A DNA stretch of 64,000 nucleotides from Planctomycetota bacterium (GTDB lineage Bacteria; Planctomycetota; JAMOSO01), in the NCBI GenBank assembly GCA_027063065.1, contig JAMOSO010000003.1, forward strand, positions 1,524 through 65,523. The letters run 5' to 3'. A model generated the notes under the pieces. That model was not told the DNA's origin and made no database searches. It saw only the letters and a list, made by a program, of their open reading frames with translations. The position numbers and the translations under genes were made by a program. This document shows positions 11,676 to 59,081 of this stretch, in pieces. Numbering within the stretch: position 1 is the stretch's first letter; every line of letters starts with the position of its first letter.

Positions 11676-12050
11676 TTATTTTTTAGGACGTTTTGCACCA
11701 TACTTTGAACGACCTTGTCTGCGCGACTCTACACCTGTAGCATCATAAACACCGCGCACAACGTGATAACGCACACCTGGAAGATCACGAACACGACCAC
11801 CACGCACCAATACGATACTATGCTCTTGTAAATTATGACCTTCACCACCGATATAGGCAGTTATTTCTTTCCCGTTAGAAAGACGAACACGCGCAATCTT
11901 ACGCAATGCCGAATTAGGCTTCTTTGGGGTTTGAGTTTTCACCTGAGTACATACACCACGCTTAAAAGCACAGCTTTCAAGCACAGGTGAATTAGAACGT
12001 TTTTTTACTTTAACGCGACCCTTACGGACCAGTTGATTAATTGTTGGCAT
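11676..12050 (-). CDS. rpsL: 30S ribosomal protein S12
   Basis: 124 aa, [12 protein letters not shown]... classic S12. Start codon lies 14 nt inside the 3' end of the rpoBC ORF. Confidence 0.95.
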
Positions 12051-15000
12051 TTACCAATTCTCCTTCAGTTTCTAAATCAGTTTTAACTTCTTCTTCAAGG
12101 ATTTCAGGTGCTTGAATTTTAAGCGGAGCCTTGAAAAGAGATTGTAATCCCGTTCCTGCAGGAATTACATGTCCCAGTATAACGTTTTCTTTTAAACCGA
12201 CAAGGTTATCTACCTTACCAGTAATAGCGGCATCAGTCAAAACCTTAGTAGTTTCTTGGAATGAAGCTGCCGATATAAAACTCTGGGAATTAATAGCCGC
12301 CTTAGTAACACCTAATAATGCTGGTGTTCCTGTGGGTGGCTGTTTTTTTGCTTCGATAAGACGCGCAACCTCAGATTTGAATAGCCATTTATCGACTTCT
12401 TCATTTGCAAGGAAACGACTATCTCCGGGATCTTCAACGTGAACCTTAGACAATTGGGCACGATTAATAATTTCTATATGCTTATCATCGATTCGCACGT
12501 TCTGGGTTGAGTATACACCTTGAACTTCTTTTAATAGATAACGTTGCAATTCTTCTTCACCCAAAATAGCAAGAATATCCTGCAAAACTAAAGGTCCATC
12601 AACTAGACCTTCACCTTTTTTAATAGGATCTCCAGTATGTACTCGCAAGTGCTTACCTTGAGGTATCAAATACTCTTTAGTAATGTCCGCATCTACGTTA
12701 GAAACTCTAACTACGCGTTTACCACGTTTTTTGTCACCTATTTCCACAATGCCGTCTATTTCAGATAGAATTGCTGGCTCTTTAGGTTTTCGAGCTTCAA
12801 ATAACTCTGTTACACGTGGTAAACCACCAGTAATATCCTGAGTACCTGCAATCTCACGAGGTGTTTTTGCCAAGACTGCACCAGCTTTTATCTCGGTACC
12901 TTCTTGCGCCTCTAAATGCGCTTTCTCTTGGATTCCATATATGCCCGCAACTTCACCATCTGCAGTTTCAATTACAATTTGAGGATGATAGTCACCTTTA
13001 TGTTCCATAATAACAGAACGTTTAATACCACTGGTATCAACTTCTTCTTTCATAGTAATATCCGCTATAATATCTTCATAACGCACCTTACCTGCATGCT
13101 CTGAAATAATAGGCACCATATGTGGATCCCATTTAGCAAGAACATCTTTAGATTTGACTTTATCACCATTAGCAACAGGTATTTCCGCACCTGTTGGAAC
13201 AGCGTATCTTTCAATCTCACGACCTTTAGTATCTTGTACTGCAATGAAACCATTACGATTTAATACTAATGACTTACCTTCCTCATTGAACACTGTTTTT
13301 AAATTGTCATAAACAACAATTCCAGATTTCTTAGCATGAAACTCTGACTCTTGCAATGCACGAGAGGCAGTTCCACCAATGTGGAAAGTACGCATGGTAA
13401 GCTGAGTTCCTGGCTCTCCAATTGACTGCGCTGCAATAATTCCAACTGCCGTTCCAGGTTCAACCATAGAACCAGTAGAAAGCATCATACCATAACATTT
13501 AGCACAAATACCCCTATCAGCCTCACAAGTTAAAGGTGAACGCACACGTATCTTGTCATAATTTAACGCTTCAATCTTTTTAGCTATTTCTTGAGTAATT
13601 AATTCTGACTCTTTAACAATCACTTCACCGGTTACAATATCAACAATTGTATCTCTAGCAACACGACCATAGATATTTGTACTCAAAGATACATCAATCT
13701 CGTCTCCACGATATACGACTCCTTTAGTAATACCCCTAAGAGTACCACAATCAGTCATAGTAATTACCTGGTTTTGAGAAACATCAACTAATTTACGCGT
13801 TAAATAACCTGAATCCGCTGTTTTTAAAGCAGTATCAGCCAAGCCCTTTCGTGCACCGTGTGATGATGAAAAGTACTCGAATCCACGTAAACCTTCTTTA
13901 AAGTTTGATTTAATAGGAGTCTCAATAATATCACCATTAGGCTTAGCCATCAATCCACGCATACCAGCTAACTGACGAATCTGCTGTTTAGAACCACGAG
14001 CTCCAGAATCCGCCATAATATAAACAGGATTCATAGGACCATCATCATTCGGCATCTGATCTTTAAGAGTTTGCATCATAGACTCACCAATTTGTTCTGT
14101 AACATGAGTCCAAATGTCAATAATTTGATTGTAACGCTCCATACGGGTTAAAGCACCCATCTTAAAATCACGCTCAATCTTTTTAACTTGTTTATCACCA
14201 GCCGCTAACAAAGTAGCTTTATCATCAGGTATTACCATATCAGCATGGCCAAAAGAAATACCCGCAAGAGTTGCTTGCTGATAACCAAGCGATTTTAAAT
14301 CATCAATCAATTTAATTGTTGGAATACGACCATTTATAGCATAACAATCGGCAATCACATCTTTAAGAACACCTTTTTTCATAGCCTTATTATAAAAAGG
14401 CATATTTTTTGGTAAAATGTTATCAAAAATAACGCGACCAACCATAGTTTCAACTAAACGACCTTTTCCACCACTAATTGAACCATCAGTTAAGACTTTA
14501 CGACCTTCTTCTAAACCTATCAAAATTCGATCATGAATTTTAATTACATTTTGAGCATAAGCCATCAAAACTTCTTCATTGTTACTGAAAATCTTTGTAG
14601 CTTCCTTACTACCGTTTGGTAAGCCTGTAATAAAGTAACAACCCAATACTATATCCTGTGAAGGACTTAGCGTAGGTTCGCCAGAAGCAGGTGAAAAAAT
14701 ATTTTGCGGAGCCATCATCAGTAAGAAAGCTTCAACCTTTGCCTCTTGAGACAACGGTAAATGCACAGCCATCTGATCACCATCAAAGTCCGCATTAAAA
14801 CCACCACAAACTAAAGGATGCAACTGAATAGCCTTACCTTCAATTAAAACTGGTTCAAAAGCTTGAATTCCAAGACGATGCAATGTTGGTGCTCGATTAA
14901 GCATTACAGGATGATTTTTAATCACATCTTCTACAATGCCCCAAATTTCCTCATCTTGTCTATCAATCATCTTGCGAGCACTCTTAATAGTGTCACATAA

Positions 15001-18000
15001 ACCACGATCTTTCAACCTGCGAATAATAAATGGTTGATAAAGTTCCAAGGCAATGCGTTTAGGCAATCCACATTGATGCAATTTTAATTCAGGTCCCACA
15101 ACAATTACAGAACGGGCTGAATAATCCACACGCTTACCTAATAAATTGCCACGGAATCTACCCTGCTTACCTTTAATCATATCAGTTAATGATTTCAGAG
15201 GACGATTACCTGTTCCCAATACAGCACGCTTACAACGAGCATTATCAAATAAAGCATCAACTGCTTGTTGTAGCATACGTTTTTCATTTTTGATAATAAT
15301 TTCTGGAGCATTTAAATCCATTAGATTTTTCAATCTATTATTACGATTAATTACTCGCCTATACAAATCATTCAAATCACTTGTAGCAAAATTACCTGAT
15401 TCCAAAGGAATAAGAGGTCGCAATTCAGGAGGTATAACGGGTATCACATTAAATATCATATCTTCTGGTTTATTTAATGATTCACCAAAGGCCTCTACTA
15501 TGCGCAAACGTTTGATAATATTCTTTTTAGTTTGTTGAGATTTTGTTTTTTCAAAATTTTCTCTTAACTCTACTGCCATTTTAACAACGTCAATAGTAGA
15601 TAAAATATCACGTATTGCTTCTGCACCCATAGCTGCACGGAACTCTGCACCAAACTTAGCACGAGTTTCTGCATACTCTTCTTCAGAAAGTATTTCACAA
15701 AATTTCAACGGAGTATCACCCGTTTCAATAACTATATATTTTTGGAAATAAATAACTTGCTGTAAATCAATTGTTTTAATGTCTAGCAAATTAGCAATTT
15801 TAGAAGGAATAGCCTTAAAAAACCAAATATGCGCAACTGGAGCAGCTAAATTAATGTGCCCCATTCTTTCACGACGCACTTTAGACCTAACTACAGATAC
15901 GCCACAACGGTCACAAGTAATACCTTTATATTTGATACCTTTATGCTTGCCACAAAAACATTCCCAGTCCTTAGTAGGCCCAAAAATCTTTTCACAAAAC
16001 AAGCCGTCACGTTCTGCACGGAACGAACGGTAATTGATAGTTTCTGGTTTTTTAACTTCACCATGACTCCAAGACCGCACTTCCTCAGCTTTGGCAATAG
16101 ATATACAAACTCGTGCAATATCATTAATTTTATCTATTTCACCTGTTTCAGGGGCTGCAGCTTCAACAGCGTCTGCCAACTCTGTTCCCGCGAAAATATC
16201 TTCTGTATCTGATTGATGTTTTTCAGTACGTAAATTTAAACCCAAACCACGGATTTCATTAACTAATACTTGAAAAGAAACTGGAGTACCAGATTCTAAA
16301 ACATTTTTTCCTCGAATCATAGATTCGTATATTTTTGTTCTTCCATCAACATCGTCAGATTTTACAGTCAAAAGTTCTTGTAAAATAGATGCTGCTCCAT
16401 AAGCCTCTAAAGCCCAAACTTCCATTTCTCCAAAACGCTGACCACCCATTCTAGCTTTACCGCCTAATGGTTGTTGCGTAATCAAAGAATAAGGACCTGT
16501 ACCACGTGCATGAATTTTGTCTTGCACTAAATGATGCAATTTCAACATATACATCACGCCAACAGTTGTACGTTGTTTAAACTTCTCACCCGTACGACCA
16601 TCATAAAGTTGTGATTTACCGCTTGGATTCATGCCCGCTTCGTTTAAAGCTTCGGCTATATCCTCTTTATTAGCACCAGTAAATACTGGAGTAATAGCTT
16701 GATATCCCATTAGCTTAGCTGCAAAGCCTAAGTGAGTTTCCAAAATCTGACCGACATTCATTCGCGATGGTACGCCTAACGGATTTAAACATATATCAAC
16801 GGGAGTACCATCTTCCAAGAATGGCATATCTTCTTGAGGCATTACCCTTGATACAACACCTTTATTTCCGTGTCGACCCGCCATTTTATCACCAGCTTGT
16901 AATTTTAACTTTCTAGCAACATAAACTTTAACAAGCTCTAACACTCCATGAGGAAGTTCATCACCATAACGCAAGTTATTTAATGCTTTCTCTTTTTCTG
17001 CACACAAAGCTGACACACCTGCATCATACTCTAAAATTGCATCTTTACATTGCCTTTCCTTGCCAGGTTCAAATTTAATATCTTCAACCTTCAAACTCTC
17101 TGAAATAGCAATGTACTCATCAGCTTTAAGACCCATAGGTAAAACACCAACCTTACGACCTTTAACATCAACAAGAGGTGCCCCATTAAGTTCTTCAAGT
17201 GTAGCAAATTTTTTCTTAATTAATTTAATAATTTTCTCATTACTCTCTTCGCGTACAACCTTAAGTTTTGCTGTCGGAGCTCTACGTCTTGGTGCGCCAT
17301 CTTCACCGCCACCATTTCGCTTAAACTTCTTAACATTAACTACAGTGCCAATAACACCTGGTTTAACGCTCAAAGAATCATTTTTTACATCTTCAGCTGA
17401 TTTACCGAAAATTGAATATAATAATTTTTCTTCTGGCGTTAAATCGCTTTTAGATCTCGGTGCAATTTTCCCTACTAAAATATCTCCAGGATTAACTTTA
17501 GTACCAATAGCTACTACGCCACTGTCATCTAAATTTGCCAAGGCGTCTTCTGGAACATTAGGTATATCACGAGTAAATTCTTCTTGACCTAACTTAGTCG
17601 CCCTAATTTCAGCAGAAAAACACTCTATATGAATAGAAGTAAATGTGTCATTTTTTAATAAATTTTCATTTACTAAAATAGCGTCTTCAAAGTTATAACC
17701 TTCCCAAGGTACAAACGCCACTGTAATGTTTTTACCTAAGGCCAAAACACCACCGTCAGTTGCAGGGCCGTCCGAAATAACCTGTCCAGCACTAACCTTT
17801 TCACCAACTTTTACCAATGGTTTTTGATTAATACAAGTACGCTCATTCAAACCCTCAAACTTACGCAATTTATATTCTTTGTCACCTATCACAATTAAAT
17901 TAGATTGAACTTTTGTAACTGTCCCTGCTTCCTCAGCAATGACAATCATTCCAGAATTTTTAGCAATTTCTGCCTCCATTCCTGTAGCAACCCAAGGTTG

Positions 18001-19890
18001 TTCAGTACGCAACAAAGGCACTGCTTGACGTTGCATATTAGATCCCATCAATGCACGATTAGCGTCATCATGCTCTAAGAAAGGTATCAAAGAAGCTGAT
18101 ACACCAACCAATTGTTTAGTTGATATATCCATTAATGTAACTTTTGATGAAGCAACTAATTTTACATCTTGTTGATTTCTAACTAATACTTGATCAGGAA
18201 CAATACGATTACCGTCCATCTCAACGTCTGCTTGCACAATAAATTGATCTTCTTCTTCATCAGCACGCATTTCTACTAATTCATCGGTAACGCACCCGTC
18301 TACTACCTTACGATAAGGAGTTACAATAAATCCCATATCATTTATAGATGCATAAATAGATAAAGACACAATCAAGCCAATATTAGCGCCCTCTGGTGTC
18401 TCAATAGGACATACTCGCCCGTAATGAGACATGTGAACATCTCGCACCTCAAAGCCTGCGCGTTTACGATTAAGACCACCTGGCCCCAAAGCAGAAAGTC
18501 TGCGTTCATTTGTTAACTGCGAAAGCGGGTTTGATTGATCGACAATATGAGATAATTCACCGCGACTAAAGAAATACTCAATAGCTGATGAAACAGCCTG
18601 GGACTGAACCAATGAACGAGGAGTTAAACGATCCTCGTTTTTTAAAGTCATTTTTTCTTTAACACCACGAGTTAAACGCAATAATCCACGTTGTATTTCC
18701 ATGCCTAACATCTGATCTATTGTTCGCACACGACGATTACCTAAATGATCGATATCATCTAAATGCGCGCCGTTACTTCCCGAACGTATATCAAGCAAAT
18801 ATTGAACAATGCCTTGCATATCAGTTTGAGTCAAAGTAAAAATTTGTTCGTCTACATTGACATTTAACTTACGATTTAAACGAAATCGACCAATATTTCC
18901 TAAATTATAACGAGAAGGATTCTCAAATCTTTCTTCAAATAATTCTCTCGCTTTATCAATAGGAGCCGGACTACGAGGGCGTACTTGCTGATATATTCTA
19001 ATTTTGGCTTCGTCGGCACTTTTTGTAGTATCCTGACGAATAGTATTCAATAACAAATCATCTTTAACTTCTTTAATAACAGAAAAACTTTTCAGTCCTG
19101 TTGACTCAATAGCTGCTATCATTTCTTCAGGAATCACTTCTTTTGACTCAAGAAGAACCTCACCCGTATTAGGATCGATAATATCTTCAACTAAAACACA
19201 GTTCGCCAATTGTTTGTAATCTGATTTTGAATTAATATTTATAGTTTCCACATTATAAAAACATGAAAGAATATCCTTATCGCTACTATTTTCACCCATG
19301 GTAGCGCGTAAAAAACAAGTGGCAACTACTTTGACACGTTGATCAATTTTTAAACGTAAAATATTACGATTAGTAACTTCCAACTCCATCCATGAGCCCA
19401 TTTCAGGTATAATGCGACAAGTAACTAATTTTTGACCTGATGGATGTGTAATTTCTGCAAAATCCACTCCTGGAGAACGCTGAATTTGTGATACGACAAC
19501 GCGTTCAGCACCATTTATCAAAAATTCACCGCCACCTATCATTTTGGGAACTTCACATAAATAGATAGATTCTTCGACTGACTCATCGTCACGTGTAAAA
19601 CGCAACCAAAGTTTAAGTGGATATGAATAGGTTAGACCTAAATCTCTACACTGTTGTACAGTGAAACGTGGCTCTCCCAATTCGTACTTGATGTACTCAA
19701 GAGCCATCGAGCCATCATAGCTCGATATGGGGAATAGCTCGCTAAATATTTTTTCGAGGCCTACATGTTGACGATCACAATATAGAACATCTTTTTGGAG
19801 GAAGGATTGATAAGACTTTCGCTGAATATCAGTTAATGTTCCAACTTTTGCGATAGATTCAACCTTTTTACCGTAGTGACGGATTTCCAT
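12037..19890 (-). CDS. rpoBC: DNA-directed RNA polymerase beta-beta' fusion protein (RpoB-RpoC single polypeptide, 2617 aa)
   Basis: Single uninterrupted ORF. N-terminal ~1225 aa carry RpoB motifs (…GPGGL…, NMQRQAVPL, …[18 protein letters not shown]…). After a linker (…[54 protein letters not shown]) comes the RpoC N-terminus ([16 protein letters not shown]…[11 protein letters not shown]…CFCGKHKG) and NADFDGD catalytic motif through to the C-terminus. Junction maps to roughly 16100-16220. Confidence 0.9.
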
Positions 19891-26989: not shown

Positions 26990-27022
26990 CAAAAAGGGTG
27001 TTCCGCCAAAGCGAAACACCCC
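26990..27022 (-). terminator. Intrinsic terminator downstream of flagellin gene (gggtgttccgc/gcgaaacaccc stem with one mismatch, followed by T5 on minus strand)
   Basis: Inverted repeat 26996-27021 about 90 nt after the flagellin stop codon. A-run on plus strand 26990-26995. Confidence 0.6.
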
Positions 27023-27110
27023 TTTCAAGGCGCGGTTGCACATATTTAAAATATTATAAATTCCACTTGTTCATAAACCGCGATTTACAAACAAATAAAA
27101 CAATTAATTA

Positions 27111-28595
27111 TTAACCAAGTAACGACAAGACTGACTGACTCATAGTATTTGCTTGCGACATCATCGATGTACCCGACTGCATCAAGATCTGATTTTTTGT
27201 AAATTCCATCATCTCTTTGGCAAAGTCTACGTCACGAATTCTACTTTCAGAAGCTGTTAGGTTTTCATTCGTAACCCGCAAAGATGAGATATTAGCATCT
27301 AAAGTATTTTTCTGAAATGCACCCAACTGCGAACGCTGACTTGACACATCAGCAATAGCCAAATCAATAATCTTTACCGCAGCATCTGGATCTGTAGACA
27401 AATCATTATCTCCACCAGATTTCAAAGTAGACAAAAAGCCACTTCTAGCATTACCATCACTATCTACAAACAATGTTTTAGTACCTAATAATGTAGAATG
27501 AGAAGACGCTATCCCCACTACTTTTTGCTCGTTAGGATTAGTGTTTGGGCCTAACTGAAAAGTCATACCACTTTCATGCACTACAAAAGTTCTACCTTTT
27601 GTACCGGTTCCACCATCTCCAACACTAGAAGAGGAGCTTCCCAACAACTCTATTTCACCAGTAAAGAATGTAGATGAAACGTTTAAAAAATTGCCCGATG
27701 CCGAGCCAGACATACCATTTACTGTAGCCTCAGCATCTAACCCATCATCAAAATCCTGTGTCCCAACAGTGGAAACATGAAACATATCAGCCGTACCTTC
27801 TAATACCTCAACTTCAATTCTAGCGTCACTACCAAAATCGGTAGACCATAAAGTACCATCTGTATTTGCTCTAATTCCTGTATTTTCACTTAAAGCATTA
27901 ATACTATCAACAGCTTGAGCTCTAGTTTGATCTTTACCAAAAGATATAACCTCAGATCCTTCTTTTCCAGAAAATCTTATAGTAACATTTTTAGTGATTG
28001 GATCAGGAATTTCATCAGTATTAACCGCACGCTCTGAAACTCTCGATACAGCCACATTTATAGAAATTGTACTTGCAGAACCAAATTGTAAACCCCTAAT
28101 TGTTGTGCCACTTAAATTTGTTGCTGGACCTGTTGTGCCACCAATATTTGTTGTAATCCTAAAATCCTGCGAACCATCCAATAAACGCTTACCAGAAAAT
28201 CTAGTTGAATTTGCAATACGATCTATAGTTGCTATAGCAGAATCTACCTCATCCTGATTAGCCCTTATTTGCTGATCATCCATACCACCAGTATTTGCAG
28301 CCTCCACAGCCAAAACCCTAATATTTTTCAATAAAGTATTAACCTCACTTAACGCACCTTCTGCAGTGCCTATAATATTTGATGCGCGTTGAGAGTTTTC
28401 AATTGCTTGATCCATACCTCCGATTTGCGCTCTTAATTGCTCTGAAATAACCAAACCCGCAGGTTTGTCAGAAGCTCTATTAATTGCAAATCCTGAGCTT
28501 AACTTTTCTAGAGAACTATTCATTTTATCATCAGTTCTCAAAAGTTGATTGTGCGCATTGATTGATGCCACATTGTTGTTAATGCGTAGTGCCAT
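27111..28595 (-). CDS. flagellin
   Basis: 494 aa. Conserved flagellin N-terminal domain (MALRINNNVASINAHNQLL…LEKLSSGFAINRASDKPAGL…) and C-terminal domain (…QRSQLGAFQKNTLDANISSLRVTNENLTASESRIRDVDFAKEMMEFTKNQIL…). Strong AAGGAGG RBS. Confidence 0.95.
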   Translation of the reverse strand: MALRINNNVASINAHNQLLRTDDKMNSSLEKLSSGFAINRASDKPAGLVISEQLRAQIGGMDQAIENSQRASNIIGTAEGALSEVNTLLKNIRVLAVEAANTGGMDDQQIRANQDEVDSAIATIDRIANSTRFSGKRLLDGSQDFRITTNIGGTTGPATNLSGTTIRGLQFGSASTISINVAVSRVSERAVNTDEIPDPITKNVTIRFSGKEGSEVISFGKDQTRAQAVDSINALSENTGIRANTDGTLWSTDFGSDARIEVEVLEGTADMFHVSTVGTQDFDDGLDAEATVNGMSGSASGNFLNVSSTFFTGEIELLGSSSSSVGDGGTGTKGRTFVVHESGMTFQLGPNTNPNEQKVVGIASSHSTLLGTKTLFVDSDGNARSGFLSTLKSGGDNDLSTDPDAAVKIIDLAIADVSSQRSQLGAFQKNTLDANISSLRVTNENLTASESRIRDVDFAKEMMEFTKNQILMQSGTSMMSQANTMSQSVLSLLG

Positions 28596-28745
28596 TGTAT
28601 CCTCCTTGAAGAATGTTGTTTACAGCTGGGTATCCCTATCCAACTGGCGACCATAAAAGAAACATCCTTGTTCTTACAGGTCTAGTTATAAAAAAAGAAC
28701 ATGCTAAAGACTTGCTTATTTCAAACATTTGCCTTCAACACCCAA

Positions 28746-28774
28746 CTTATCGGACATAGAAAATAAACCTTTAG
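28746..28774 (-). promoter_or_regulatory. Sigma-28 (FliA)-type promoter for flagellin: TAAAGgTTT-N11-tCCGATAA
   Basis: Minus strand CTAAAGGTTTATTTTCTATGTCCGATAAG. TAAA-N15-(t)CCGATAA spacing is exact versus consensus TAAA-N15-GCCGATAA. About 140 nt upstream of flagellin ATG. Confidence 0.7.
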
Positions 28775-28990
28775 AAAAAAAATAAATCTTTTTTAAAACA
28801 TCTTTTAAGTGTCAAATACAATTTATACAGAATAACACACAATATTTAGTGACATTTTTTGGCACTGCCAGAACCATGACGACAAAATATGTCACAAGAC
28901 AAGTGACGTTTTTTGTCAAACAACAACTTTTCATATACCGCTTAAAACATAAACACCTACCAACAAACAACTTATCTAATTTGTATGTTT

Positions 28991-29006
28991 TTGGCACGAT
29001 ATTCTC
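28991..29006 (+). promoter_or_regulatory. Possible sigma-54 -24/-12 element upstream of pilin gene (TTGGCACGA…, -12 region degenerate)
   Basis: TTGGCACG matches the -24 consensus YTGGCACG perfectly. Expected -12 TTGC is TCTC (2/4). 45 nt upstream of pilin ATG. rpoN is encoded 1.5 kb away. Confidence 0.3.
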
Positions 29007-29050
29007 TATAAGAAAACTGTTAATTTCACATCTTTTAAAGGAGAAAAAAA

Positions 29051-29758
29051 ATGATGATGAAGAAAAAAGCATTCACCCTAATCGAGTTGATGATCGTTGT
29101 AGCTATTATCGCTATTATTGCAGCGATTGCGATCCCCAACTTACTAGCCGCAAAAATGAGCGCTAACGAAACAGCCTCTATCGGTAGTTTAAGCGCCATT
29201 AAAAATGCCGAAACTTTGTACGCAGAGCGAGATATTGATGGCGACGGCAAAGGCAATTACTGGAATTTAAACATTTATGGCCTTTACTCTATCCAAAACA
29301 ATGCTGGTACTGCCATTAAACTAATTCAAGACCCTGCCACTGCTATGTCAGATACAAGCACTGTATTGACAAAAGCTGATGCTGATGCCGCTTTCGTTGC
29401 AGCTGGCGCAACTGCAGCCCCTGGTTATGGCATCGCTTATGTAGCCGCCAACAAAGCCCCTAAACAAGGTTACTACATTGCAGCAGGTACCGACGGTTGG
29501 GATACAAGCACAGATTCTTCTGTAGCCTTAGACTGTGTTACAGGTGGACAATATGTATTCAGTGCATATCCAGAGAAATACAATTCTACTGGCGTAATGA
29601 CATACATACTTAACCAACAAGGCGTTGTATATCAAGGTGATTTAGCCCAAGGTGCAGCTGTAGCTAAATGGCCTGCAGAAAACCCTCAAACAGCATTGTT
29701 AACTGCTACAAATGCAGGCGTATCAAACGCTACTGCCAAATGGCAAGTTGCTAAATAA
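29051..29758 (+). CDS. type IV pilin / major pseudopilin-like protein (prepilin-type N-terminal methylation domain)
   Basis: 235 aa. MMMKKKA|FTLIELMIVVAIIAIIAAIAIPNLLAAK… is a class III signal with Glu+5 (Ala rather than Gly at -1). Only one Cys. Good RBS (AAAGGAG). Own terminator. Confidence 0.85.
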   Translation: MMMKKKAFTLIELMIVVAIIAIIAAIAIPNLLAAKMSANETASIGSLSAIKNAETLYAERDIDGDGKGNYWNLNIYGLYSIQNNAGTAIKLIQDPATAMSDTSTVLTKADADAAFVAAGATAAPGYGIAYVAANKAPKQGYYIAAGTDGWDTSTDSSVALDCVTGGQYVFSAYPEKYNSTGVMTYILNQQGVVYQGDLAQGAAVAKWPAENPQTALLTATNAGVSNATAKWQVAK

Positions 29759-29787
29759 TAACTAAGTTAGTACAGCTTAAATAAAAA

Positions 29788-29816
29788 AGGTCGCTATTAT
29801 TAGCGACCTTTTTTAT
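29788..29816 (+). terminator. Intrinsic terminator after pilin gene (aggtcgcta-ttat-tagcgacct + T6)
   Basis: 9-bp perfect stem, 4-nt loop, followed by tttttt. Confidence 0.8.
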
Positions 29817-29893
29817 TTAAGCCATTAGATATCCTATTAAAATCTAATAAATAAAATGTTGACCTCCCTATGCTTTCCGCCACAATACCACGC

Positions 29894-30505
29894 ATGCAAA
29901 GCATTCACACTTCATCAATTGAACAACTAATAGAACAGTTTCAGACTCTACCAGGGGTTGGCAAACGTAGTGCAGAAAGGTTTGCTTACCACATTTTAAA
30001 GACCCCAACCAATGATGCTATGAATATGGCCAGAGCCATCAGAGATGTAAAACAAAATATTCGCAATTGCAACTGTTGTTTTAATATTACTGAAGATGAT
30101 TTATGCACCATCTGTAATAGTTCTAAACGTAACCAACGCCAATTATGCGTTGTGGAATTTCCAAAAGATCTATTTAGCATCGAAAAATCTGGACTATACA
30201 ACGGCGTATACCATGTACTGTTAGGAAAACTATCCCCCCTTGATCATATTGGCCCTGAACGATTAAAAATTGCTGAATTATTTCAAAGATTAAAGCAAAA
30301 TGAATTTGACGAAATAATCTTAGCTACAAACCCAACTGTGGAGGGGGATGCAACTAGCTTATATATAATAAAAAAAATAAAGGAACTAAACATCAGCACC
30401 CATATCAGTAGGTTAGCACGAGGTATTCCTGCAGGCGCAGAAATCGAATTTGCATCAAAAGCTATGCTAAGCGATGCTCTTTCCAAAAGACAAGGTATCA
30501 ATTAA
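29894..30505 (+). CDS. recR: recombination protein RecR
   Basis: HhH motif (LPGVGKRSAERFAYHIL), C4 zinc finger (CNCCFNITEDDLCTICN), Toprim domain. ORF track begins 8 codons upstream (29870), but the conserved RecR N-terminus aligns to the MQSIH… Met. Confidence 0.85.
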   Translation: MQSIHTSSIEQLIEQFQTLPGVGKRSAERFAYHILKTPTNDAMNMARAIRDVKQNIRNCNCCFNITEDDLCTICNSSKRNQRQLCVVEFPKDLFSIEKSGLYNGVYHVLLGKLSPLDHIGPERLKIAELFQRLKQNEFDEIILATNPTVEGDATSLYIIKKIKELNISTHISRLARGIPAGAEIEFASKAMLSDALSKRQGIN

Positions 30506-31971
30506 TGCAATTACAAACAAATCTTAATCTAAAATTGCAACAAACTCTTAAAATAACACCTAGAATGTTGCAGTCTATTGAAATTTTACAATTACCTATC
30601 ACTAAATTAGAAGAATACATCAATAATGAACTTGTCTCAAATCCCGCATTAGAAATCACTGAAAACTCCACTGAAATAAAACAAAACCTACAAGAAGATA
30701 AAGAAAAATCGCTTAGAAAAGATGAAGGTGACTTCAGTGCCGTAGATGAATTAAGCAAGGATGATATGTGGGACGACGCTTTCGACACTCCCAAAGGACC
30801 TAAATCATCAAACGAAGAATATGGCAAAATGGAAGCAATTGAAAATACAGCCGAAATTAAAGAAACACTAAAAGATTATCTAACCGAGCAAATGCAATTT
30901 TTAGATCTAAGCCCAGAAGAAAAAAAAACACTTGAGTTTTTAATAGAAAATATTGAAGACAGTGGTTATATAGGCACTAACTACGAAGAATTAAAAAAGA
31001 TTGCTCCAGTCAAGGTAGACAATGATATTTGGGAAGCTATGGTTAGAACCTTAAAAGAAATGGATCCACCTGGTGTCGGAGCTCAAAATCTACAAGAAAC
31101 CCTATTACTACAACTATATTTTAATGGCGGCGACAATCGTATCGAAGAAATGTTAATAAAAGAACACCTGGACGACATTCTACACAACCGCATACCACAA
31201 ATAGCAAAAGCCACTAAGATGAGCCAGGCAGAAATTGTCGCATCTGTTGAAGCCATTGCAACTTTAAAACCAAAACCAGGAATTTACTTTACACCTAGCG
31301 AAACAAACAACCAAGCTATACCTGATGTTATCGTTAGTCTAATAGAAGGCGATGATGGCACACGACATTATGTAGTTAGCTTGCGAGAAGAAACTTTGCC
31401 AAATATAAGAATAAATGATTACTACGCATCTGTATTACCCACCATAAAAGAGAACAAAAAAGATTTTAACTACCTAAAAGAAAAAATAGATTCTGGCCAA
31501 AATTTAATATCTGCTCTCGAACAACGCCGCGATACTATTAAAAAAATTGCCACTTATATTGTACAAGAACAACAAGAATTTTTAGAGCATGGCATTGAAA
31601 AATTACGCCCTATGAAGATGCAAGATGTTGCCGATGCTATTGGGCGCCACTTGGCAACTGTAGGACGGGCCATATCTGGAAAATACATACAAACACCACG
31701 CGGTATATTACCATTTAAGTTTTTCTTCTCAGCTGGTTTAAATTCAACTGCAAAAAGCATCTCAAAGGGTAACACTACAGAATCAAATAAAGCCGTTATG
31801 CAAAAAATCAAACAATTAATAGATAGTGAAGACAAGTCAAGACCTTTAAGTGATCAAGAAATAGCTAACATACTAAAAAAACAAGGCACATCAATCGCCA
31901 GAAGAACTGTATCTAAATATCGAGAAGCTATGAATATCGCGTCGACAAGACAACGCAAAGTCTATAAATAA
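30505..31971 (+). CDS. rpoN: RNA polymerase sigma-54 factor
   Basis: 488 aa. Gln/Leu-rich region I, core-binding region, C-terminal HTH and RpoN box (ARRTVSKYRE). ATG overlaps recR stop (TAATG). Confidence 0.9.
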   Translation: MQLQTNLNLKLQQTLKITPRMLQSIEILQLPITKLEEYINNELVSNPALEITENSTEIKQNLQEDKEKSLRKDEGDFSAVDELSKDDMWDDAFDTPKGPKSSNEEYGKMEAIENTAEIKETLKDYLTEQMQFLDLSPEEKKTLEFLIENIEDSGYIGTNYEELKKIAPVKVDNDIWEAMVRTLKEMDPPGVGAQNLQETLLLQLYFNGGDNRIEEMLIKEHLDDILHNRIPQIAKATKMSQAEIVASVEAIATLKPKPGIYFTPSETNNQAIPDVIVSLIEGDDGTRHYVVSLREETLPNIRINDYYASVLPTIKENKKDFNYLKEKIDSGQNLISALEQRRDTIKKIATYIVQEQQEFLEHGIEKLRPMKMQDVADAIGRHLATVGRAISGKYIQTPRGILPFKFFFSAGLNSTAKSISKGNTTESNKAVMQKIKQLIDSEDKSRPLSDQEIANILKKQGTSIARRTVSKYREAMNIASTRQRKVYK

Positions 31972-31979
31972 ACATTAAA

Positions 31980-32672
31980 ATGCATTATTACCTGAAATGG
32001 TTGCAAAATAAAACATTAAACATCCTATTTCCTAACACCTGCTTAAACTGTCATGCATACTGCCATTCAACCGTATGCAACAACTGTCAAAAGCTATTTT
32101 TTTCTAAGCAATCTAATGTATGTAAACGCTGTGGAATGTTTATTCAGACACAGCTTACCACCAAAAAATGTTTTAACTGTTTAAATAGACCTGTTTTATA
32201 CACTCAAGCCCCTCTACTACATGACGGAGCCGTATCTAAAGCTATATCAGATTTTAAATATAATAAAAAAATAAAATGGGGTGATTTTTTTGCGTATATA
32301 TTATATCGTGATTGTAAGACATACATCGAAAACTTTGATATTATTTGCCCAGTACCATTACACAAATCTAGATTACGTCAACGAGGATTTAATCAAAGTG
32401 AAGAAATCGCAATTACATTAAGCAAATTAAGTGGCAAACCTATTGAACATTTATTAATACGTGCAGATAAAACCCATTCCCAAAAAGGATTGGGACGCAA
32501 AGATAGACTTTTAAATCTAAAAAATATATTTAGACCTAAATCTGATGCAAACCATCAAAATATTTTGTTGCTAGATGATGTAACTACTACAGGCTCAACT
32601 CTTTACGAATGTTCAAAAAGTATTAAAAACCCTGGTAAAATAGGTGGGATTTCTGTCAGCAGAAGAATATAA
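31980..32672 (+). CDS. comF: ComF family protein (phosphoribosyltransferase-domain competence protein ComFC-like)
   Basis: 230 aa. N-terminal Cys-rich zinc-finger (CLNCHAYCHSTVCNNCQ…CKRCG…CFNC) plus PRTase motif (ILLLDDVTTTGSTL). Confidence 0.75.
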   Translation: MHYYLKWLQNKTLNILFPNTCLNCHAYCHSTVCNNCQKLFFSKQSNVCKRCGMFIQTQLTTKKCFNCLNRPVLYTQAPLLHDGAVSKAISDFKYNKKIKWGDFFAYILYRDCKTYIENFDIICPVPLHKSRLRQRGFNQSEEIAITLSKLSGKPIEHLLIRADKTHSQKGLGRKDRLLNLKNIFRPKSDANHQNILLLDDVTTTGSTLYECSKSIKNPGKIGGISVSRRI

Positions 32673-32780
32673 ATAAAAAATTATAAATATTTCAATCTTT
32701 AAATTTTGTAATATGTCAAAAAACTTGAACTACAAATTTTGCATCTTATAATATTGTTTCCTTCAAATTATAAGGATAAT

Positions 32781-34691
32781 ATGAGCGATCCAATTAAACA
32801 TGAATGCGGTATCGGAATGATCCGCCTACTAAAACCCCTAGACTATTTTATTGAAAAATATGGTACACCCTTATGGGGATTAAATAAACTATATCTATTA
32901 ATGGAAAAACAACACAATCGAGGCCAAGATGCTTTTGGAATTGGGTGTGTAAAATTGAATATGCCTGTGGGCAATTCATTTATGATGCGCGAACGTTCTG
33001 TCGCAAACAACCCCATTGAAGATGCGTTTAAAAATATATCTACAGAATACAACAGCCTAAAACAAGCTGGAAAATTTAAGCAAAACACAGGATTTAGCTA
33101 CAAAGAAAATTTTGCCTTTGCGGGAGAACTCTATCTAGGCCATTTAAGATATGGCACACATGGCGAAAACAGTATTCACGTTGCCCATCCAGTTGTTAGA
33201 CGCAACAATTGGATAACTAAAAATATTATGTTAGCTGGTAATTTCAACATGACTAACACTCCTGCGTTAATCAAACGTCTAATGGAATTTGGACAACATC
33301 CAACGCGCAATACTGATACCATGACCATCTTAGAACAAATAGGTTACTGTGTTGATGAGGCCTATGACAAATTAAGAAGAGAACTACAAAGCGATAGCTT
33401 AAACGGCTTAGAGCTAACAGAAGAAATATCCAACCAAATTAATCTTTTAAACATTTTAAAAGACGCAAGCAAACAATGGGATGGCGGATATGTATTTGGA
33501 GGCTTCACCGGCAGTGGCGATTCTTTTGTAATGCGCGACCCTAACGGTATACGACCATGCTCTTATATCCAAACAGATGAATATGTTGCAATAGCAAGTG
33601 AACGCGTTGCTTTAATGACTGCATTCGATAGCGATATCGATTCTGTACAAAATCTACCACCAGGACATGCCATTACTATAAATCGTAAAGGTAAAATGCA
33701 AATAGATCAAGTTATGCAACCTCGCACAAAAGCTCACTGTTCGTTTGAACGCATATATTTTTCTAGACCTAACGACCCTGAAATATATACTGAACGCAAA
33801 AAATTAGGACAAGCTATTGTTCCGCAAATATTAAAAAGTATCAATAATGACTTAGAAAATGCCGTGTTTGGATTTATCCCTAATTCTGCAGAAATAGCAT
33901 ATTTAGGAATGATCGAAGCATTAGAAGATAAGTGCAAAGAAATTACCAAAAATAAAATTTTAGAGGCGCAAAAACAAGGCGAACTTACTCCCGAACAAAT
34001 TGATAAATTTTTATCATTAAAACCACGAGCTGAAAAAGTTGCCATTAAAGACGTTAAAATGCGTACGTTTATTTCTCAAAGTGATGGACGTAAAGACTTG
34101 GTTAGTCACGTATATGATATAACCTATGGCATTATTAAGCCAACAGACACCTTAATATGTATTGATGATTCAATAGTACGCGGTACAACTATGCGGGAAT
34201 CAATTTTAAGAATATTAAGTCGACTAAACCCTAAAAAAATTATTATTATTTCTTCTGCTCCACAAATCAGATATCCAGATTGTTATGGTATTGATATGTC
34301 AAGAATGACAGAATTTATTGCTTTTGAAGCTACTATTGCCCTATTACAAGAAAACAACCAAAGCGCATTAATAGATGAAGTATATAAACTGTGTGTTGAG
34401 CAGGCTCAACTACCAGATAACAAACTGCACAATTATGTTAGCAGGCTTTATAAAGAGTTTAGTCCTCAAACAGTATCAGATAAAATCACTGAAATGCTAA
34501 CTCCAACAAATATCAATTGGAAAGGCTCTATTGAAATTATTTATCAAAGCATCGAAGGCTTACACAAAGCTATACCAGAACATTCTGGCGACTGGTATTT
34601 TACTGGTAATTATCCTACACCAGGAGGTTATCGAGTACTTAATACTGCTTTTATAAATTATTACGAAAAAAACGATAAACGTTCATATTAG
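32781..34691 (+). CDS. purF: amidophosphoribosyltransferase, long form (class II glutamine amidotransferase + PRTase)
   Basis: Propeptide MSDPIKHE then nucleophile Cys (CGIGMI…) and C-terminal PRPP-binding loop (LICIDDSIVRGTTM). ORF track extends 14 codons further upstream (32739). AAGGA RBS precedes 32781. Confidence 0.75.
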   Translation: MSDPIKHECGIGMIRLLKPLDYFIEKYGTPLWGLNKLYLLMEKQHNRGQDAFGIGCVKLNMPVGNSFMMRERSVANNPIEDAFKNISTEYNSLKQAGKFKQNTGFSYKENFAFAGELYLGHLRYGTHGENSIHVAHPVVRRNNWITKNIMLAGNFNMTNTPALIKRLMEFGQHPTRNTDTMTILEQIGYCVDEAYDKLRRELQSDSLNGLELTEEISNQINLLNILKDASKQWDGGYVFGGFTGSGDSFVMRDPNGIRPCSYIQTDEYVAIASERVALMTAFDSDIDSVQNLPPGHAITINRKGKMQIDQVMQPRTKAHCSFERIYFSRPNDPEIYTERKKLGQAIVPQILKSINNDLENAVFGFIPNSAEIAYLGMIEALEDKCKEITKNKILEAQKQGELTPEQIDKFLSLKPRAEKVAIKDVKMRTFISQSDGRKDLVSHVYDITYGIIKPTDTLICIDDSIVRGTTMRESILRILSRLNPKKIIIISSAPQIRYPDCYGIDMSRMTEFIAFEATIALLQENNQSALIDEVYKLCVEQAQLPDNKLHNYVSRLYKEFSPQTVSDKITEMLTPTNINWKGSIEIIYQSIEGLHKAIPEHSGDWYFTGNYPTPGGYRVLNTAFINYYEKNDKRSY

Positions 34692-34723
34692 ATAATTATG
34701 GGGCTATAAATGCCCCATAATTA

Positions 34724-35017
34724 TTAATCAGCATCATAAATCAATACTTTATTCCAAAAAGTATTAAACTTATTTAAAAAATCTTTATGTAATGGATGCA
34801 CTTGATAAGCATCATGAGCAACCATATCTGCAAAAATTACTGTTAAACAAAAAGAATAACTACGATCTATAGCTGGCCTATCTGTTATAGCAGGAGTACC
34901 AATAAAACAAGACTCAGAATCTATTAATTTTAATGACTCTAAACCAGACTTAAAATTTTGTAACTGAGACTCAGATAAGTCTTCTTTTAACCAAAATAAA
35001 ACATTATGTACTAACAT
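34724..35017 (-). CDS. Dabb (stress-responsive alpha/beta-barrel) domain protein
   Basis: 97 aa. Pattern typical of Dabb-family small proteins. Weak family assignment. Confidence 0.45.
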   Translation of the reverse strand: MLVHNVLFWLKEDLSESQLQNFKSGLESLKLIDSESCFIGTPAITDRPAIDRSYSFCLTVIFADMVAHDAYQVHPLHKDFLNKFNTFWNKVLIYDAD

Positions 35018-35019
35018 AA

Positions 35020-36123
35020 TTAAACCTTCTTAAAATCATTCATCATATTAGTAAATTCATCGAACAAATAAGCAGAATCATGTGGACCTGGCGAAGATTC
35101 AGGGTGATATTGCACTGAAAATGCCGGCACATTTTTACAACGTATGCCCTCTAAAGTATTGTCATTTAAATTGACATGGGTCAACTCTACCTTATTTTTG
35201 TCTAACGCTTCTAGATTAACACAAAAACCATGATTTTGAGAAGTTATTTCAACTTTTTTAGTCTTTAAATTTTGAACTGGCTGATTACCACCTCTATGTC
35301 CAAACTTTAACTTATAAGCGCTACCACCCATCGCTAAAGATAGCAATTGATGCCCTAAACAAATACCAAAGACTGGGATTTTACCTAACAATTCTTTAAT
35401 AGTAACAATAGCATAGGTTAATGGCTCAGGGTCACCTGGTCCATTAGATAAAAAGACACCATCAAAACCACCATCTAAAATAGTTTGTGCATTAGTATCA
35501 GCAGGAAAAATTGTCACATTACATCCAGCAGCATCTAACATACGCAAAATATTAGTCTTAATACCAAAATCAAAGGCTGCAACTTTAAACTCTTTATCTT
35601 GCGAGTGATTTCCAAATGGTTGGGCAGTTTTGATAGAAATATCTTTGACTATATCACGACCTTCTAAGCCTGGATATTTAGCTAATTCATTTTTTAGATT
35701 ATCTATAGATAACAATTGTTCATCACCCGAGGCAATAATCGCACGCATAGCACCCTTATCGCGAATATGTCGAGTCAAGGCTCTAGTATCAATACTATCA
35801 ATACCTATAATATTATTATCTTTTAAATATTTGCCCAAAGTTTGTTGAGATTGAAAATTACTTGGATAATCACAATACTCTCTTACAACAAAACCAGAAG
35901 CAAAAATGCCACGACTTTCTATATCACCTTCATTAATACCATAATTACCTATCAGAGGATAAGTCATTGTAATAATTTGCTCATTATAAGAAGGGTCTGT
36001 TAAAATTTCTTGGTAACCCGTCATTGAGGTATTAAAAACGGCTTCACCACATTTAAATCCCTCTGCGCCAAAACCGCGACCATGAAATACAGTGCCATCT
36101 TCTAGTAGTAATACAGCTTTCAT
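35020..36123 (-). CDS. carA: carbamoyl-phosphate synthase small (glutaminase) subunit
   Basis: 367 aa. CPSase small-chain N-domain plus class I GATase with catalytic Cys (GICLGHQ) and His/Glu. Confidence 0.95.
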   Translation of the reverse strand: MKAVLLLEDGTVFHGRGFGAEGFKCGEAVFNTSMTGYQEILTDPSYNEQIITMTYPLIGNYGINEGDIESRGIFASGFVVREYCDYPSNFQSQQTLGKYLKDNNIIGIDSIDTRALTRHIRDKGAMRAIIASGDEQLLSIDNLKNELAKYPGLEGRDIVKDISIKTAQPFGNHSQDKEFKVAAFDFGIKTNILRMLDAAGCNVTIFPADTNAQTILDGGFDGVFLSNGPGDPEPLTYAIVTIKELLGKIPVFGICLGHQLLSLAMGGSAYKLKFGHRGGNQPVQNLKTKKVEITSQNHGFCVNLEALDKNKVELTHVNLNDNTLEGIRCKNVPAFSVQYHPESSPGPHDSAYLFDEFTNMMNDFKKV

Positions 36124-51991: not shown

Positions 51992-52375
51992 TTGAAGACT
52001 TACGAGGCCCTGTTTCTAGCCGATAGCGCCATGCCTTACGGTGCAGAAGCAGCAGAAAACAGCTCAGAAGAGACCAAGGCCACAGTTGAACAAACTGTGC
52101 AGTCCATTATGGACAAAGCTGGTGCCAAAGTTATTGACACCGTAATGTGGGGAAACCGCAAATTAGCTTATTACATCAACAAACAAACTCGTGGTATTTA
52201 CTATGCAGTTTATTTTGAATGTGATCCCCTAAAAGTGAACGTTGTTACTCAACAAGTAAATATCAGCACAGATATTTACCGTGTTATGGTGACAGAAGAT
52301 CCCAAACAAACTGCCAAAGAAAACTTTGAACTTTACATTAAACAAGCTCAGGAAGCCAAAGCTGAGACAAAATAA
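51992..52375 (+). CDS. rpsF: 30S ribosomal protein S6
   Basis: 127 aa, YEALFLA…WGNRKLAYYINK… S6 fold with a short insertion in the first loop. Confidence 0.85.
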   Translation: MKTYEALFLADSAMPYGAEAAENSSEETKATVEQTVQSIMDKAGAKVIDTVMWGNRKLAYYINKQTRGIYYAVYFECDPLKVNVVTQQVNISTDIYRVMVTEDPKQTAKENFELYIKQAQEAKAETK

Positions 52376-58031: not shown

Positions 58032-59081
58032 ATGACTAAGGCCTTAAGCGAAATAATTAAGGCTTTAAAGCCAATTAATTGCAATCTAAAAAAAGACATC
58101 AACATCACCTCTTTAGCGTCTCTGAGCGACGCCAAAGAAGGTGATATCAGTTTTTTAACCAATACAAAATATATTGCCCAATTATCTTCTACATGTGCAT
58201 CTGCTGTTTTGGTTAAACCAGAACATGCCGATATACAATCCAACGCCATTTTAATTATCGTAGATAATCCTAATCTGGCCTTTGCGGAAGTAGCCAAGTT
58301 ATTGGGGTTTGAAAGACCTGTATCGCCTATGGGCATATCAGACAAGGCTTGTATTGCAAAAGATGCTCACATCTCAAATGATGTAAAGATACAAGCATAT
58401 AGTGTGATAGCTTCTGGTGTAAGCATTGGCGAATCGACAAATATTTATCCAAATGTAGTCATAGAAAACAATGTCAAAATTGGTAAATACTGCACTATCT
58501 ATCCTAATGTTACTATTATGGATGGCTGTGAAATTGGCGATAATGTCATAATTAATGCTGGTAGTGTAATAGGAAGTGACGGTTTTGGATTTGATTTAGA
58601 AAGTCCTGATAACACCAAAATACCACAAGTCGGCAACGTAATCATTGGCAATAATGTAGAAATTGGTGCCAATGTGAGCATTGATAGAGCAAGGTTTGGA
58701 TCTACAATTATCCAAGACAACGTCAAAATCGACAATCTTGTTCAAATCGCTCACAACGTCGTAATAGGTAAAAATTCAGTGATAGTTTCTCAAACTGGTA
58801 TAGCAGGTAGCTCTAAACTTGGCACGGGAGTAATAGTTGGAGGGTGTACTGCCATTTCAGGACATCTGCGTATAGCAGATAATTCTATGTTTGCTGGACG
58901 CTCAGGGGTTACCAAATCAATAACTAATGCTGGCATTTATGCTGGATTACCTGCACAACCTATTAATTCATGGCGAAAAGATATAGCCAATATTCGGTCT
59001 TTACATAAAATAAAAAAGCATATTAAAGACCTTAAAGAAAGGATACTTAAAATTGAACACAATACCCCAAAAAACACTTAA
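58032..59081 (+). CDS. lpxD: UDP-3-O-(3-hydroxyacyl)glucosamine N-acyltransferase
   Basis: 349 aa. N-terminal LpxD domain plus left-handed beta-helix hexapeptide repeats (…IGDNVIINAGSVIGSDGFGF…). Confidence 0.9.
   Translation: MTKALSEIIKALKPINCNLKKDINITSLASLSDAKEGDISFLTNTKYIAQLSSTCASAVLVKPEHADIQSNAILIIVDNPNLAFAEVAKLLGFERPVSPMGISDKACIAKDAHISNDVKIQAYSVIASGVSIGESTNIYPNVVIENNVKIGKYCTIYPNVTIMDGCEIGDNVIINAGSVIGSDGFGFDLESPDNTKIPQVGNVIIGNNVEIGANVSIDRARFGSTIIQDNVKIDNLVQIAHNVVIGKNSVIVSQTGIAGSSKLGTGVIVGGCTAISGHLRIADNSMFAGRSGVTKSITNAGIYAGLPAQPINSWRKDIANIRSLHKIKKHIKDLKERILKIEHNTPKNT

Follow-up and report, generated by a model that had tools for sequence, protein, structure and literature searches.

The 64-kb stretch analysed here (the window) lies on contig JAMOSO010000003.1 of a Planctomycetota bacterium. 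Its plus strand carries, head to tail in the list of open reading frames (ORFs), recR, rpoN, a gene of the ComF family and a long-form purF, and a type IV pilin-like gene precedes them. Gene order in relatives shows that the recR-rpoN pair is an inherited, phylum-wide housekeeping synteny. We consider it likely that the region as a whole is made up of ordinary transcription units amid housekeeping genes, with a recR-rpoN-comF operon, a separate purF and a separate pilin gene insulated by a terminator. An earlier note on this DNA had seen in the cluster and the adjacent pilin a competence or transformation neighbourhood, an interpretation that is not supported.

Conservation of the recR-rpoN pair

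In Escherichia coli, Bacillus subtilis and most bacteria, recR belongs to a dnaX-ybaB(yaaK)-recR operon. The GTDB genomes were scanned with an RpoN alignment, and the best 80 loci were then searched by tblastn. All 80 belong to Planctomycetota (Brocadiia, Planctomycetia and Phycisphaerae). A co-directional recR is present 0 to 338 nucleotides (nt) upstream of rpoN at 66 of these loci and, displaced by an insertion, 1.4 to 2.4 kb upstream at two more; five have ybaB and rpoN without recR, and seven have neither recR nor ybaB near rpoN, one of them lacking any upstream sequence. Adjacency of the two genes is found in Brocadiia (9 of 10), Phycisphaerae (4 of 6) and named Planctomycetia (35 of 41). 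It is also found in all six distinct metagenomic relatives, where recR lies directly upstream of rpoN, mostly in the order dnaX-ybaB-recR-rpoN; in the closest of these, recR and rpoN overlap by 1 or 4 nt.

Gene order and direction upstream of rpoN in most Planctomycetota relatives are those of the dnaX-ybaB-recR operon, and the window RecR is a full equivalog, but Planctomycetota append rpoN after recR. The window departs further from the common pattern: recR adjoins rpoN, whereas dnaX and ybaB are not upstream, and comF follows rpoN. DnaX and YbaB gave no tblastn match anywhere in the window, and pilin and flagellin genes are found upstream of recR instead. In the nearest relatives, at 42% RpoN identity, ybaB and recR are likewise separated by insertions, and recR and rpoN still overlap by 4 nt. 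Because these relatives tolerate insertions at one junction yet keep the overlap at the other, the recR-rpoN pair is the most stable part of the dnaX-ybaB-recR-rpoN string. In the window lineage, this tail of the string would have parted from dnaX-ybaB, with the pair retained.

The earlier note had remarked that rpoN is usually found with lptB, hpf and ptsN rather than with recR. This is correct for Proteobacteria, where operons of the lptB-rpoN-hpf-ptsN type are known, and does not extend to Planctomycetota, given the 66 loci above. The two contexts do share some features, since rpoN would in both cases come last in a compact operon of genes that are needed constitutively, and its product shows an identical set of three domains with the RpoN box. 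However, the window has no lptB, hpf or ptsN; recR lies upstream of rpoN, the ComF-family gene downstream, and the partners of rpoN are replication and recombination genes. For annotation, the context of a Planctomycetota rpoN should accordingly be judged against dnaX-ybaB-recR and not against the proteobacterial operon. The linkage joins the sigma-54 gene to an operon of replication and recombination genes, can serve as an easy synteny marker within the phylum, and hints at constitutive production of sigma-54. A literature search, within the library available to it, found no paper on a phylum-wide recR-rpoN linkage; an rpoN clone of Planctomyces limnophilus was reportedly described by Leary et al. 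in 1998.

A different origin can be considered, in which rpoN is horizontally acquired or paralogous, having arrived on an island with the pilin gene and comF while a housekeeping rpoN resides elsewhere in the genome. The absence of dnaX and ybaB, the usual upstream partners, from the window would fit such a history, which we nevertheless find hardly credible. GC content is uniform across the window, neither GC content nor skew changes towards the flanks, and core housekeeping genes occupy these flanks; a horizontal-transfer island was rejected on this uniform composition and on the core-gene flanks. Moreover, pairing of recR with rpoN is what Planctomycetota have ancestrally, and the closest relatives show that ybaB and recR can be separated by insertions while the recR-rpoN overlap stays. 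By comparison with rpoN contexts in relatives, the window rpoN is the ancestral copy and not a paralogue.

The nearest named relatives of the window RpoN, at 35 to 42% identity, are all Planctomycetota. Among the 185,579 species representatives of GTDB r232 (both search peptides occur in the window RpoN), the best match reaches 40%, and the window genome itself is not one of them. The source thus appears to be a deep-branching, poorly sampled Planctomycetota-like lineage. Its records are limited to ENA ERZ27262648, Logan SRR7968107 and a relative in run SRR30655968. This sole close relative is represented by two short contigs, L091 with the flagellin and pilin genes and L001 with recR-rpoN-comF-purF, whose ends overlap by 23 nt inside the terminator hairpin that separates pilin from recR. 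Identity to the window is 85% for RpoN, 57% for the pilin and 54% for ComF. The order of the cluster is neither an assembly artefact nor due to chance, because the two contigs reproduce the succession flagellin, pilin, terminator and recR-rpoN-comF-purF.

Genes and transcription units

The co-directional recR-rpoN-comF-purF cluster and the TAATG at 30503-30507, in which the recR TAA overlaps the rpoN ATG by 1 nt, had been described in the earlier note, and the ORF list and the sequence agree with it on both. It had placed comF 9 nt after rpoN; the junction is indeed tight, with a spacer of 8 nt between the rpoN stop and the comF start at 31980. The distance of 108 nt that it gave from the end of comF to purF is right for the purF ATG at 32781.

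The recombination mediator gene recR (29894..30505, plus strand) encodes 203 amino acids (aa). Its true start is most likely 29894 and not the ORF-list start at 29870, because the upstream ATG is not kept in the relative with 85% RpoN identity, whose recR also has 203 aa. RecR matches the RecR_HhH, RecR_ZnF and Toprim_4 domains and passes the TIGR00615 equivalog (232.3 bits for a cut-off of 162.55). The sigma-54 gene rpoN (30505..31971, plus strand; 488 aa) passes the TIGR02395 equivalog (386 bits for a cut-off of 277.35), and its product contains the three sigma-54 Pfam domains (PF00309, PF04963 and PF04552) and an RpoN box, ARRTVSKYR.

Three transcription units, [pilin], [recR-rpoN-comF] and [purF], can be proposed from the conserved signals around these genes. 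An intrinsic terminator, bidirectional, is predicted between pilin and recR at 29775..29822 (-32.4 kcal/mol, z = -9.5), runs of A and T flanking its stem of 22 bp; the close relative has, at the same place, a hairpin of different sequence and the same structure. A promoter scan gives TTGACC-N16-CACAAT on the plus strand at 29859..29886 as the candidate recR operon promoter. Both hexamers are kept in L001, where their flanks have diverged. The end of the -10 element and the ATG at 29894 are 7 nt apart, and the mRNA leader would therefore be very short or absent. The recR, rpoN and comF genes would be co-transcribed from this sigma-70-type promoter abutting the recR start, and rpoN is probably coupled translationally to recR through the TAATG overlap. 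This arrangement would give a steady, constitutive supply of sigma-54.

For purF, the scan gives TTGAAC-N16-TATAAT on the plus strand (32725..32752), followed by an AAGGA ribosome-binding site; the -35 and -10 elements and the ribosome-binding site are kept in L001, and the rest of the spacer is not. A structure scan found no hairpin between comF and purF. Downstream, a predicted terminator hairpin (34691..34725; -21 kcal/mol, z = -5.6) lies between the convergent purF and a gene for a Dabb-domain protein. An Rfam scan of positions 27000-36000 gave sub-threshold matches on the terminator hairpin only, and no riboswitch before purF. The gene purF has a conserved promoter of its own and is placed with other genes of nucleotide synthesis (carA, carB and pyrG).

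The ComF-family gene and purF

The two genes that follow rpoN are local, lineage-specific additions. In none of the 80 GTDB species does a ComF or PurF homologue lie less than 8 kb from rpoN, comF does not adjoin rpoN in five more distant metagenomic relatives, and comF and purF follow rpoN only in the window and in L001, where comF begins 1 nt after rpoN. The genes downstream of rpoN at 67 loci fall into 88 Pfam families; no family recurs at more than six loci, and the 25 families listed include no phosphoribosyltransferase. In the window lineage only, a gene for a zinc-ribbon and phosphoribosyltransferase protein would thus have been appended to recR-rpoN.

This ComF-family gene (31980..32672, plus strand; 230 aa) was delimited by domain matches and alignment. 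It encodes a double zinc ribbon with four cysteines (DZR_2, E = 3.9e-7) and a phosphoribosyltransferase-like domain, and keeps 22 of 22 invariant columns of a 24-sequence alignment (A6), among them the four zinc-binding cysteines, RGFNQ and DDVxTTGxT. It remains below the curated NCBIfam cut-offs, with 107.1 bits for TIGR00201 (cut-off 233.55) and 96.6 for GntX (cut-off 304). Judging from these matches, the assignment to the ComF family is genuine, at the level of the family for comF as for purF given the sub-cut-off scores. The public gene call (L089 11632-12168) starts 156 nt late, has 178 aa and loses the conserved four-cysteine ribbon, which argues for the 230-aa ORF.

The arrangement of an N-terminal four-cysteine zinc finger, a phosphoribosyltransferase-like domain and a DDVxTTGxT loop is that of the ComFC/ComF/GntX proteins, of which Helicobacter pylori ComFC has a solved structure (PDB 7P0H, PMC9005727). 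The window gene differs in its scores below the TIGR00201 and GntX cut-offs and in its location outside a comFA-comFB-comFC or other competence operon. Against solved structures, its single sequence gave no match, and a profile gave generic matches to the phosphoribosyl pyrophosphate (PRPP) loop; the match to 7P0H is among these and is weak (E = 6e-5, PRPP loop only). The function of the window protein is a predicted one. Homologues, at 35% identity or less, are found in many phyla and in archaeal bins, under the source name 'ComF family protein'. Since they are so widespread, the family is uninformative on competence.

The purF-like gene (32781..34691, plus strand; ORF-list start 32739/32781) encodes a long-form amidophosphoribosyltransferase of 636 aa from the ATG at 32781, identified by NCBIfam and structure matches. 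Its score for TIGR01134 is below the cut-off (125.5 for 350 bits), as expected for the long form. The catalytic cysteine follows an 8-residue propeptide (MSDPIKHE-CGIG), the glutamine amidotransferase domains GATase_2/6/7 give weak matches, and the best matches among solved structures are PurF enzymes (E. coli PurF, E = 1.8e-24). The gene faces carA-carB-pyrG and other nucleotide-synthesis genes.

Is the region a competence neighbourhood?

The earlier note had proposed a competence-oriented neighbourhood, in which sigma-54 drives the pilus and RecR and ComF process incoming DNA. There are reasons to take the proposal seriously: transformation depends on ComFC in every competent bacterium studied, and this protein, which binds single-stranded DNA, has a zinc finger whose closest likeness is in RecR (PMC9005727). 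In addition, recR-rpoN-comF lies beside a pilin gene in both available genomes of the lineage, and the pilin promoter looks sigma-54-dependent. Co-expression of recR and comF is, by analogy, a reasonable idea, if not an established one.

However, the phylum-wide recR-rpoN pair is tied to dnaX-ybaB and not to pilins or com genes. The gene comF is found beside rpoN in none of the 80 GTDB species and in none of the five more distant metagenomic relatives, and ComF-family proteins occur across many phyla irrespective of competence. A strong terminator parts the pilin gene from the operon, purF has its own promoter, and purF and the other neighbours belong to nucleotide metabolism within a window of housekeeping genes. 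The earlier note had suggested a search for comEA, comEC, dprA, pilQ and pilT; none of these, nor comFA or pilB, is present in the window. A ComF-family gene beside recR and a pilin is no evidence of a competence island, and we regard a neighbourhood oriented towards competence as very unlikely. That the pilin gene adjoins rpoN is a lineage-specific coincidence and not a requirement: a prepilin gene is found within 8 kb of rpoN in one of the 80 GTDB species.

A variant of this idea starts from sigma-54 itself. In the helix-turn-helix of RpoN, the recognition helix (residues ~380-390) reads HLATVGR in the window and in the relative with 85% identity, and H-x-(S/T/A)-T-V-(S/C)-R in the other 24 aligned Planctomycetota sequences. 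The residue before the conserved arginine is thus glycine in the two members of the lineage, serine in 23 of the 24 others and cysteine in the remaining one. In Klebsiella sigma-54, this arginine contacts the -12 region. The glycine coincides with an unusual TCTC at the -12 position of the pilin promoter, a single promoter, and no other intergenic TGGCAC-type site was found in the window. The lineage might have built a minimal transformation-related module, in which a sigma-54 of altered -12 specificity is encoded next to the pilin gene that it controls and shares a transcript with recR and comF, although we give this scenario a very slight chance. We keep to the reading of separate, ordinary units.

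Control of the pilin gene by sigma-54

The earlier note had also named sigma-54 as a candidate regulator of the pilin, and this part of it is credible, in view of a conserved -24 TGGCAC, palindromes and the promoters of homologues. The link between sigma-54 and the pilin is supported by predicted cis-acting elements, independently of gene adjacency. The candidate promoter, TGGCACgatatTCTC, lies on the plus strand at 28992..29006; its -24 element is perfect and its -12 element lacks the GC. The TGGCAC at 28992-28997 is conserved in L091 within a block, TTTGGCAC-N2-TATTCTCTA, that lies 59 nt before the pilin ATG and is kept between the two sequences, the spacer having otherwise diverged. Upstream, a motif scan finds three enhancer-like palindromes of consensus GTGACA-N5-TGTCAC (28849-28865, 28879-28895 and 28903-28919), putative sites for a PilR-like activator, with centres 81, 105 and 135 nt upstream of the TGGCAC element. 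They account for three of the seven matches, with up to two mismatches, in the whole window. Another TGGCAC, at 28860, was discarded as a promoter: it is not kept in the relative and forms half of a palindrome.

Pilin homologues of L091, L092, L093 and L094 are also preceded by the palindrome, the copy of L093 being perfect, with nine matches for 0.09 expected from shuffles. Sense-strand sigma-54 promoters of the homologues read cGGCAtgcgcgTTGC, TGGaACaaaatTTGC and TGGCAtgggccTTGC; where the window has TGGCAC, the homologues carry a canonical TGGCAY-N5-TTGC at the same distance from the palindromes. The geometry of palindromes and promoter is the same in L091, L093, L094 and L174. The last of these loci, from Brocadiia, was fetched together with L175 after the motif had been derived, and both were then tested with it. 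The first pilin gene of L174 has two palindromes and TGGCATattttTTGC / TGGCAtattttTTGC, and its second pilin gene a sigma-54 promoter, TGGTACactctTTGC / TGGtACactctTTGC.

When metagenomes were scanned with the pilin alignment, most matches covered the N-terminus alone and few extra true members were gained; the scan was hence used as a broad control set: 85 pilin-like genes (loci L094-L173) with an FTLIELMIV-type N-terminus, taken with 350 nt upstream. A sense-strand promoter of the TGGCAC-N5-TTGC type precedes 31 of the 85, 10 of them perfect; antisense promoters number 10, and about 7 are expected at the background frequency that 1 Mb of DNA from Planctomycetota gives. The palindrome, as (C/G)TGACA-N5-TGTCA(C/G), is present at 11 of the 85 genes for 0.66 expected, typically 90 to 130 nt upstream of the promoter. 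The set suggests that a module of activator site and sigma-54 promoter is widespread among pilin genes. Within the window, TGGCAC-N5-TTGC with at most one mismatch occurs eight times for 3.9 expected, never upstream of the pilin or flagellin gene; all these canonical-type matches but the one at 52113-52127 are inside listed ORFs.

Palindromes and promoter together resemble the classic enhancer-dependent layout. In Pseudomonas, PilR sites contain TGTC repeats, and on this basis we take the palindrome to be a putative PilR site, so that the activator would be PilR-like. The pilin gene would then form a separate unit, most likely switched on in trans by the sigma-54 holoenzyme acting with an enhancer-binding activator that resembles PilR, in the manner of pilA in Pseudomonas or Myxococcus. 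Control of pilA by PilR and sigma-54 has been described (PMC6058289, PMC7170775). Like the PilS/PilR systems of Pseudomonas aeruginosa (PMC6058289), Xanthomonas oryzae (RpoN2-PilRX, PMC7170775) and Myxococcus, the pilin gene of the window appears as its own unit, with a -24 TGGCAC and repeated TGTC/GACA sites about 100 nt upstream, and its homologues have canonical -24 and -12 elements. It differs from them by the missing -12 GC, by the absence of pilR, pilS and assembly genes from the window, and by the DUF2950-like globular part of the pilin.

Several points weigh against this account of the region. At the -12 position, the window and L091 have TCTC instead of TTGC and lack the near-invariant GC, and sigma-54 dependence is therefore less certain in the window organism than in the homologues. 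The palindrome was derived from the loci where it was first counted, and the independent evidence consists of L174, L175 and the metagenome set only; L175 gives only a weak match, and the upstream regions of L098, L099 and L121 have neither the palindrome nor a sigma-54 motif. No activator gene was found, the window containing neither pilR nor pilS, and our inspection covers 64 kb of the genome. Operon boundaries are drawn solely from conserved motifs and hairpins. Finally, comF has stayed in the recR-rpoN operon of two diverged genomes, and selection may have favoured its expression together with recR. Single-stranded DNA is handled by both proteins (PMC9005727).

Alternatively, the pilin gene may be read by a holoenzyme of the sigma-70 family, TGGCAC and the palindromes being operators of an ordinary repressor or activator. 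The missing -12 GC and the three upstream regions without a sigma-54 motif speak for it, as does a conserved TATTCT, 2 nt after TGGCAC, that could serve as a -10 element. No conserved -35 element lies at the right distance from TATTCT, however, and TGGCAC occupies exactly the place taken by TGGCAY-N5-TTGC in the homologues, equally far from the same palindromes; sigma-54 motifs are, besides, strongly enriched on the sense strand upstream of such pilins. We regard sigma-70 control as unlikely, while sigma-54 dependence of the window promoter seems to us reasonably probable. To our knowledge, the targets of sigma-54 are essentially uncharacterised in Planctomycetota; the GTGACA-N5-TGTCAC palindromes and sigma-54 promoters upstream of DUF2950-type pilins would constitute a testable pilus-control regulon. 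All components of the region are of known kinds, and its modest novelty lies in the conservation of dnaX-ybaB-recR-rpoN and in the module of palindrome and sigma-54 promoter at DUF2950-type pilins.

The pilin and its neighbours

The product of the type IV pilin-like gene (29051..29758, plus strand) has a class III signal peptide and, at its C-terminus, a DUF2950-like domain; it matches N_methyl (PF07963), TIGR02532 (32.7 bits for a cut-off of 16.3) and DUF2950, and belongs to a coherent, large Planctomycetota family. The cleavage motif, KKA|FTLIE, has alanine and not glycine at -1. Alanine is found before the predicted prepilin cleavage site in the window, in L091 (2481-3212) and in the first L092 paralogue, and glycine in the other 22 aligned members. 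A structural model (predicted local distance difference test score, pLDDT, of 70) has a long N-terminal helix, residues 9 to 55, followed by strands; a fold search with it against solved structures gave no significant match, the best being PilX (E = 0.21). No pilus-assembly gene (pilB, pilC, pilM-Q or gsp) is present in the window, and the L098 homologue appears, on a reading of the sequence, to follow a pilC/gspF-like gene. Upstream of DUF2950-type pilins and on the opposite strand, a gene for an NAD-dependent epimerase/dehydratase is found on three unrelated Planctomycetota contigs (L092 3681-4544, L174 1873-2814 and L175 2407-3348), L092 having four tandem pilin paralogues.

The flagellin gene (27111-28595) is divergent from the pilin gene. 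It is preceded on the minus strand, at 28748-28773, by a candidate sigma-28 (FliA)-type promoter, TAAAGgtttattttctatgtCCGATAAG, of the form TAAAG-N15-CCGATAAG, both boxes of which are conserved in L091; control of flagellin by sigma-54 was dropped in favour of this promoter.

Besides the flagellin gene, the window contains ribosomal protein operons, a fused rpoB-rpoC, tuf, a Na/Pi transporter gene, carA, carB, pyrG, a gene for an FHA-domain protein, mreB, mreC, smpB, prs, pth, and the clusters rpsF-ssb-rplI-dnaB and bamA-skp-lpxD-lpxC/fabZ-lpxA-lpxB. RpoB-RpoC fusions are known from Helicobacter and Wolbachia, and no report of one in Planctomycetes turned up in a literature search. In the window, the fusion is a single ORF of 2617 aa on the minus strand (12037-19890), directly downstream of rplL, with Rpb2 domains at aa 19-1223 and Rpb1 domains at aa 1256-2491. 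A second fusion, LpxC-FabZ, has 426 aa and lies on the plus strand at 59053-60333, inside the bamA-skp-lpxD-lpxC/fabZ-lpxA-lpxB cluster.

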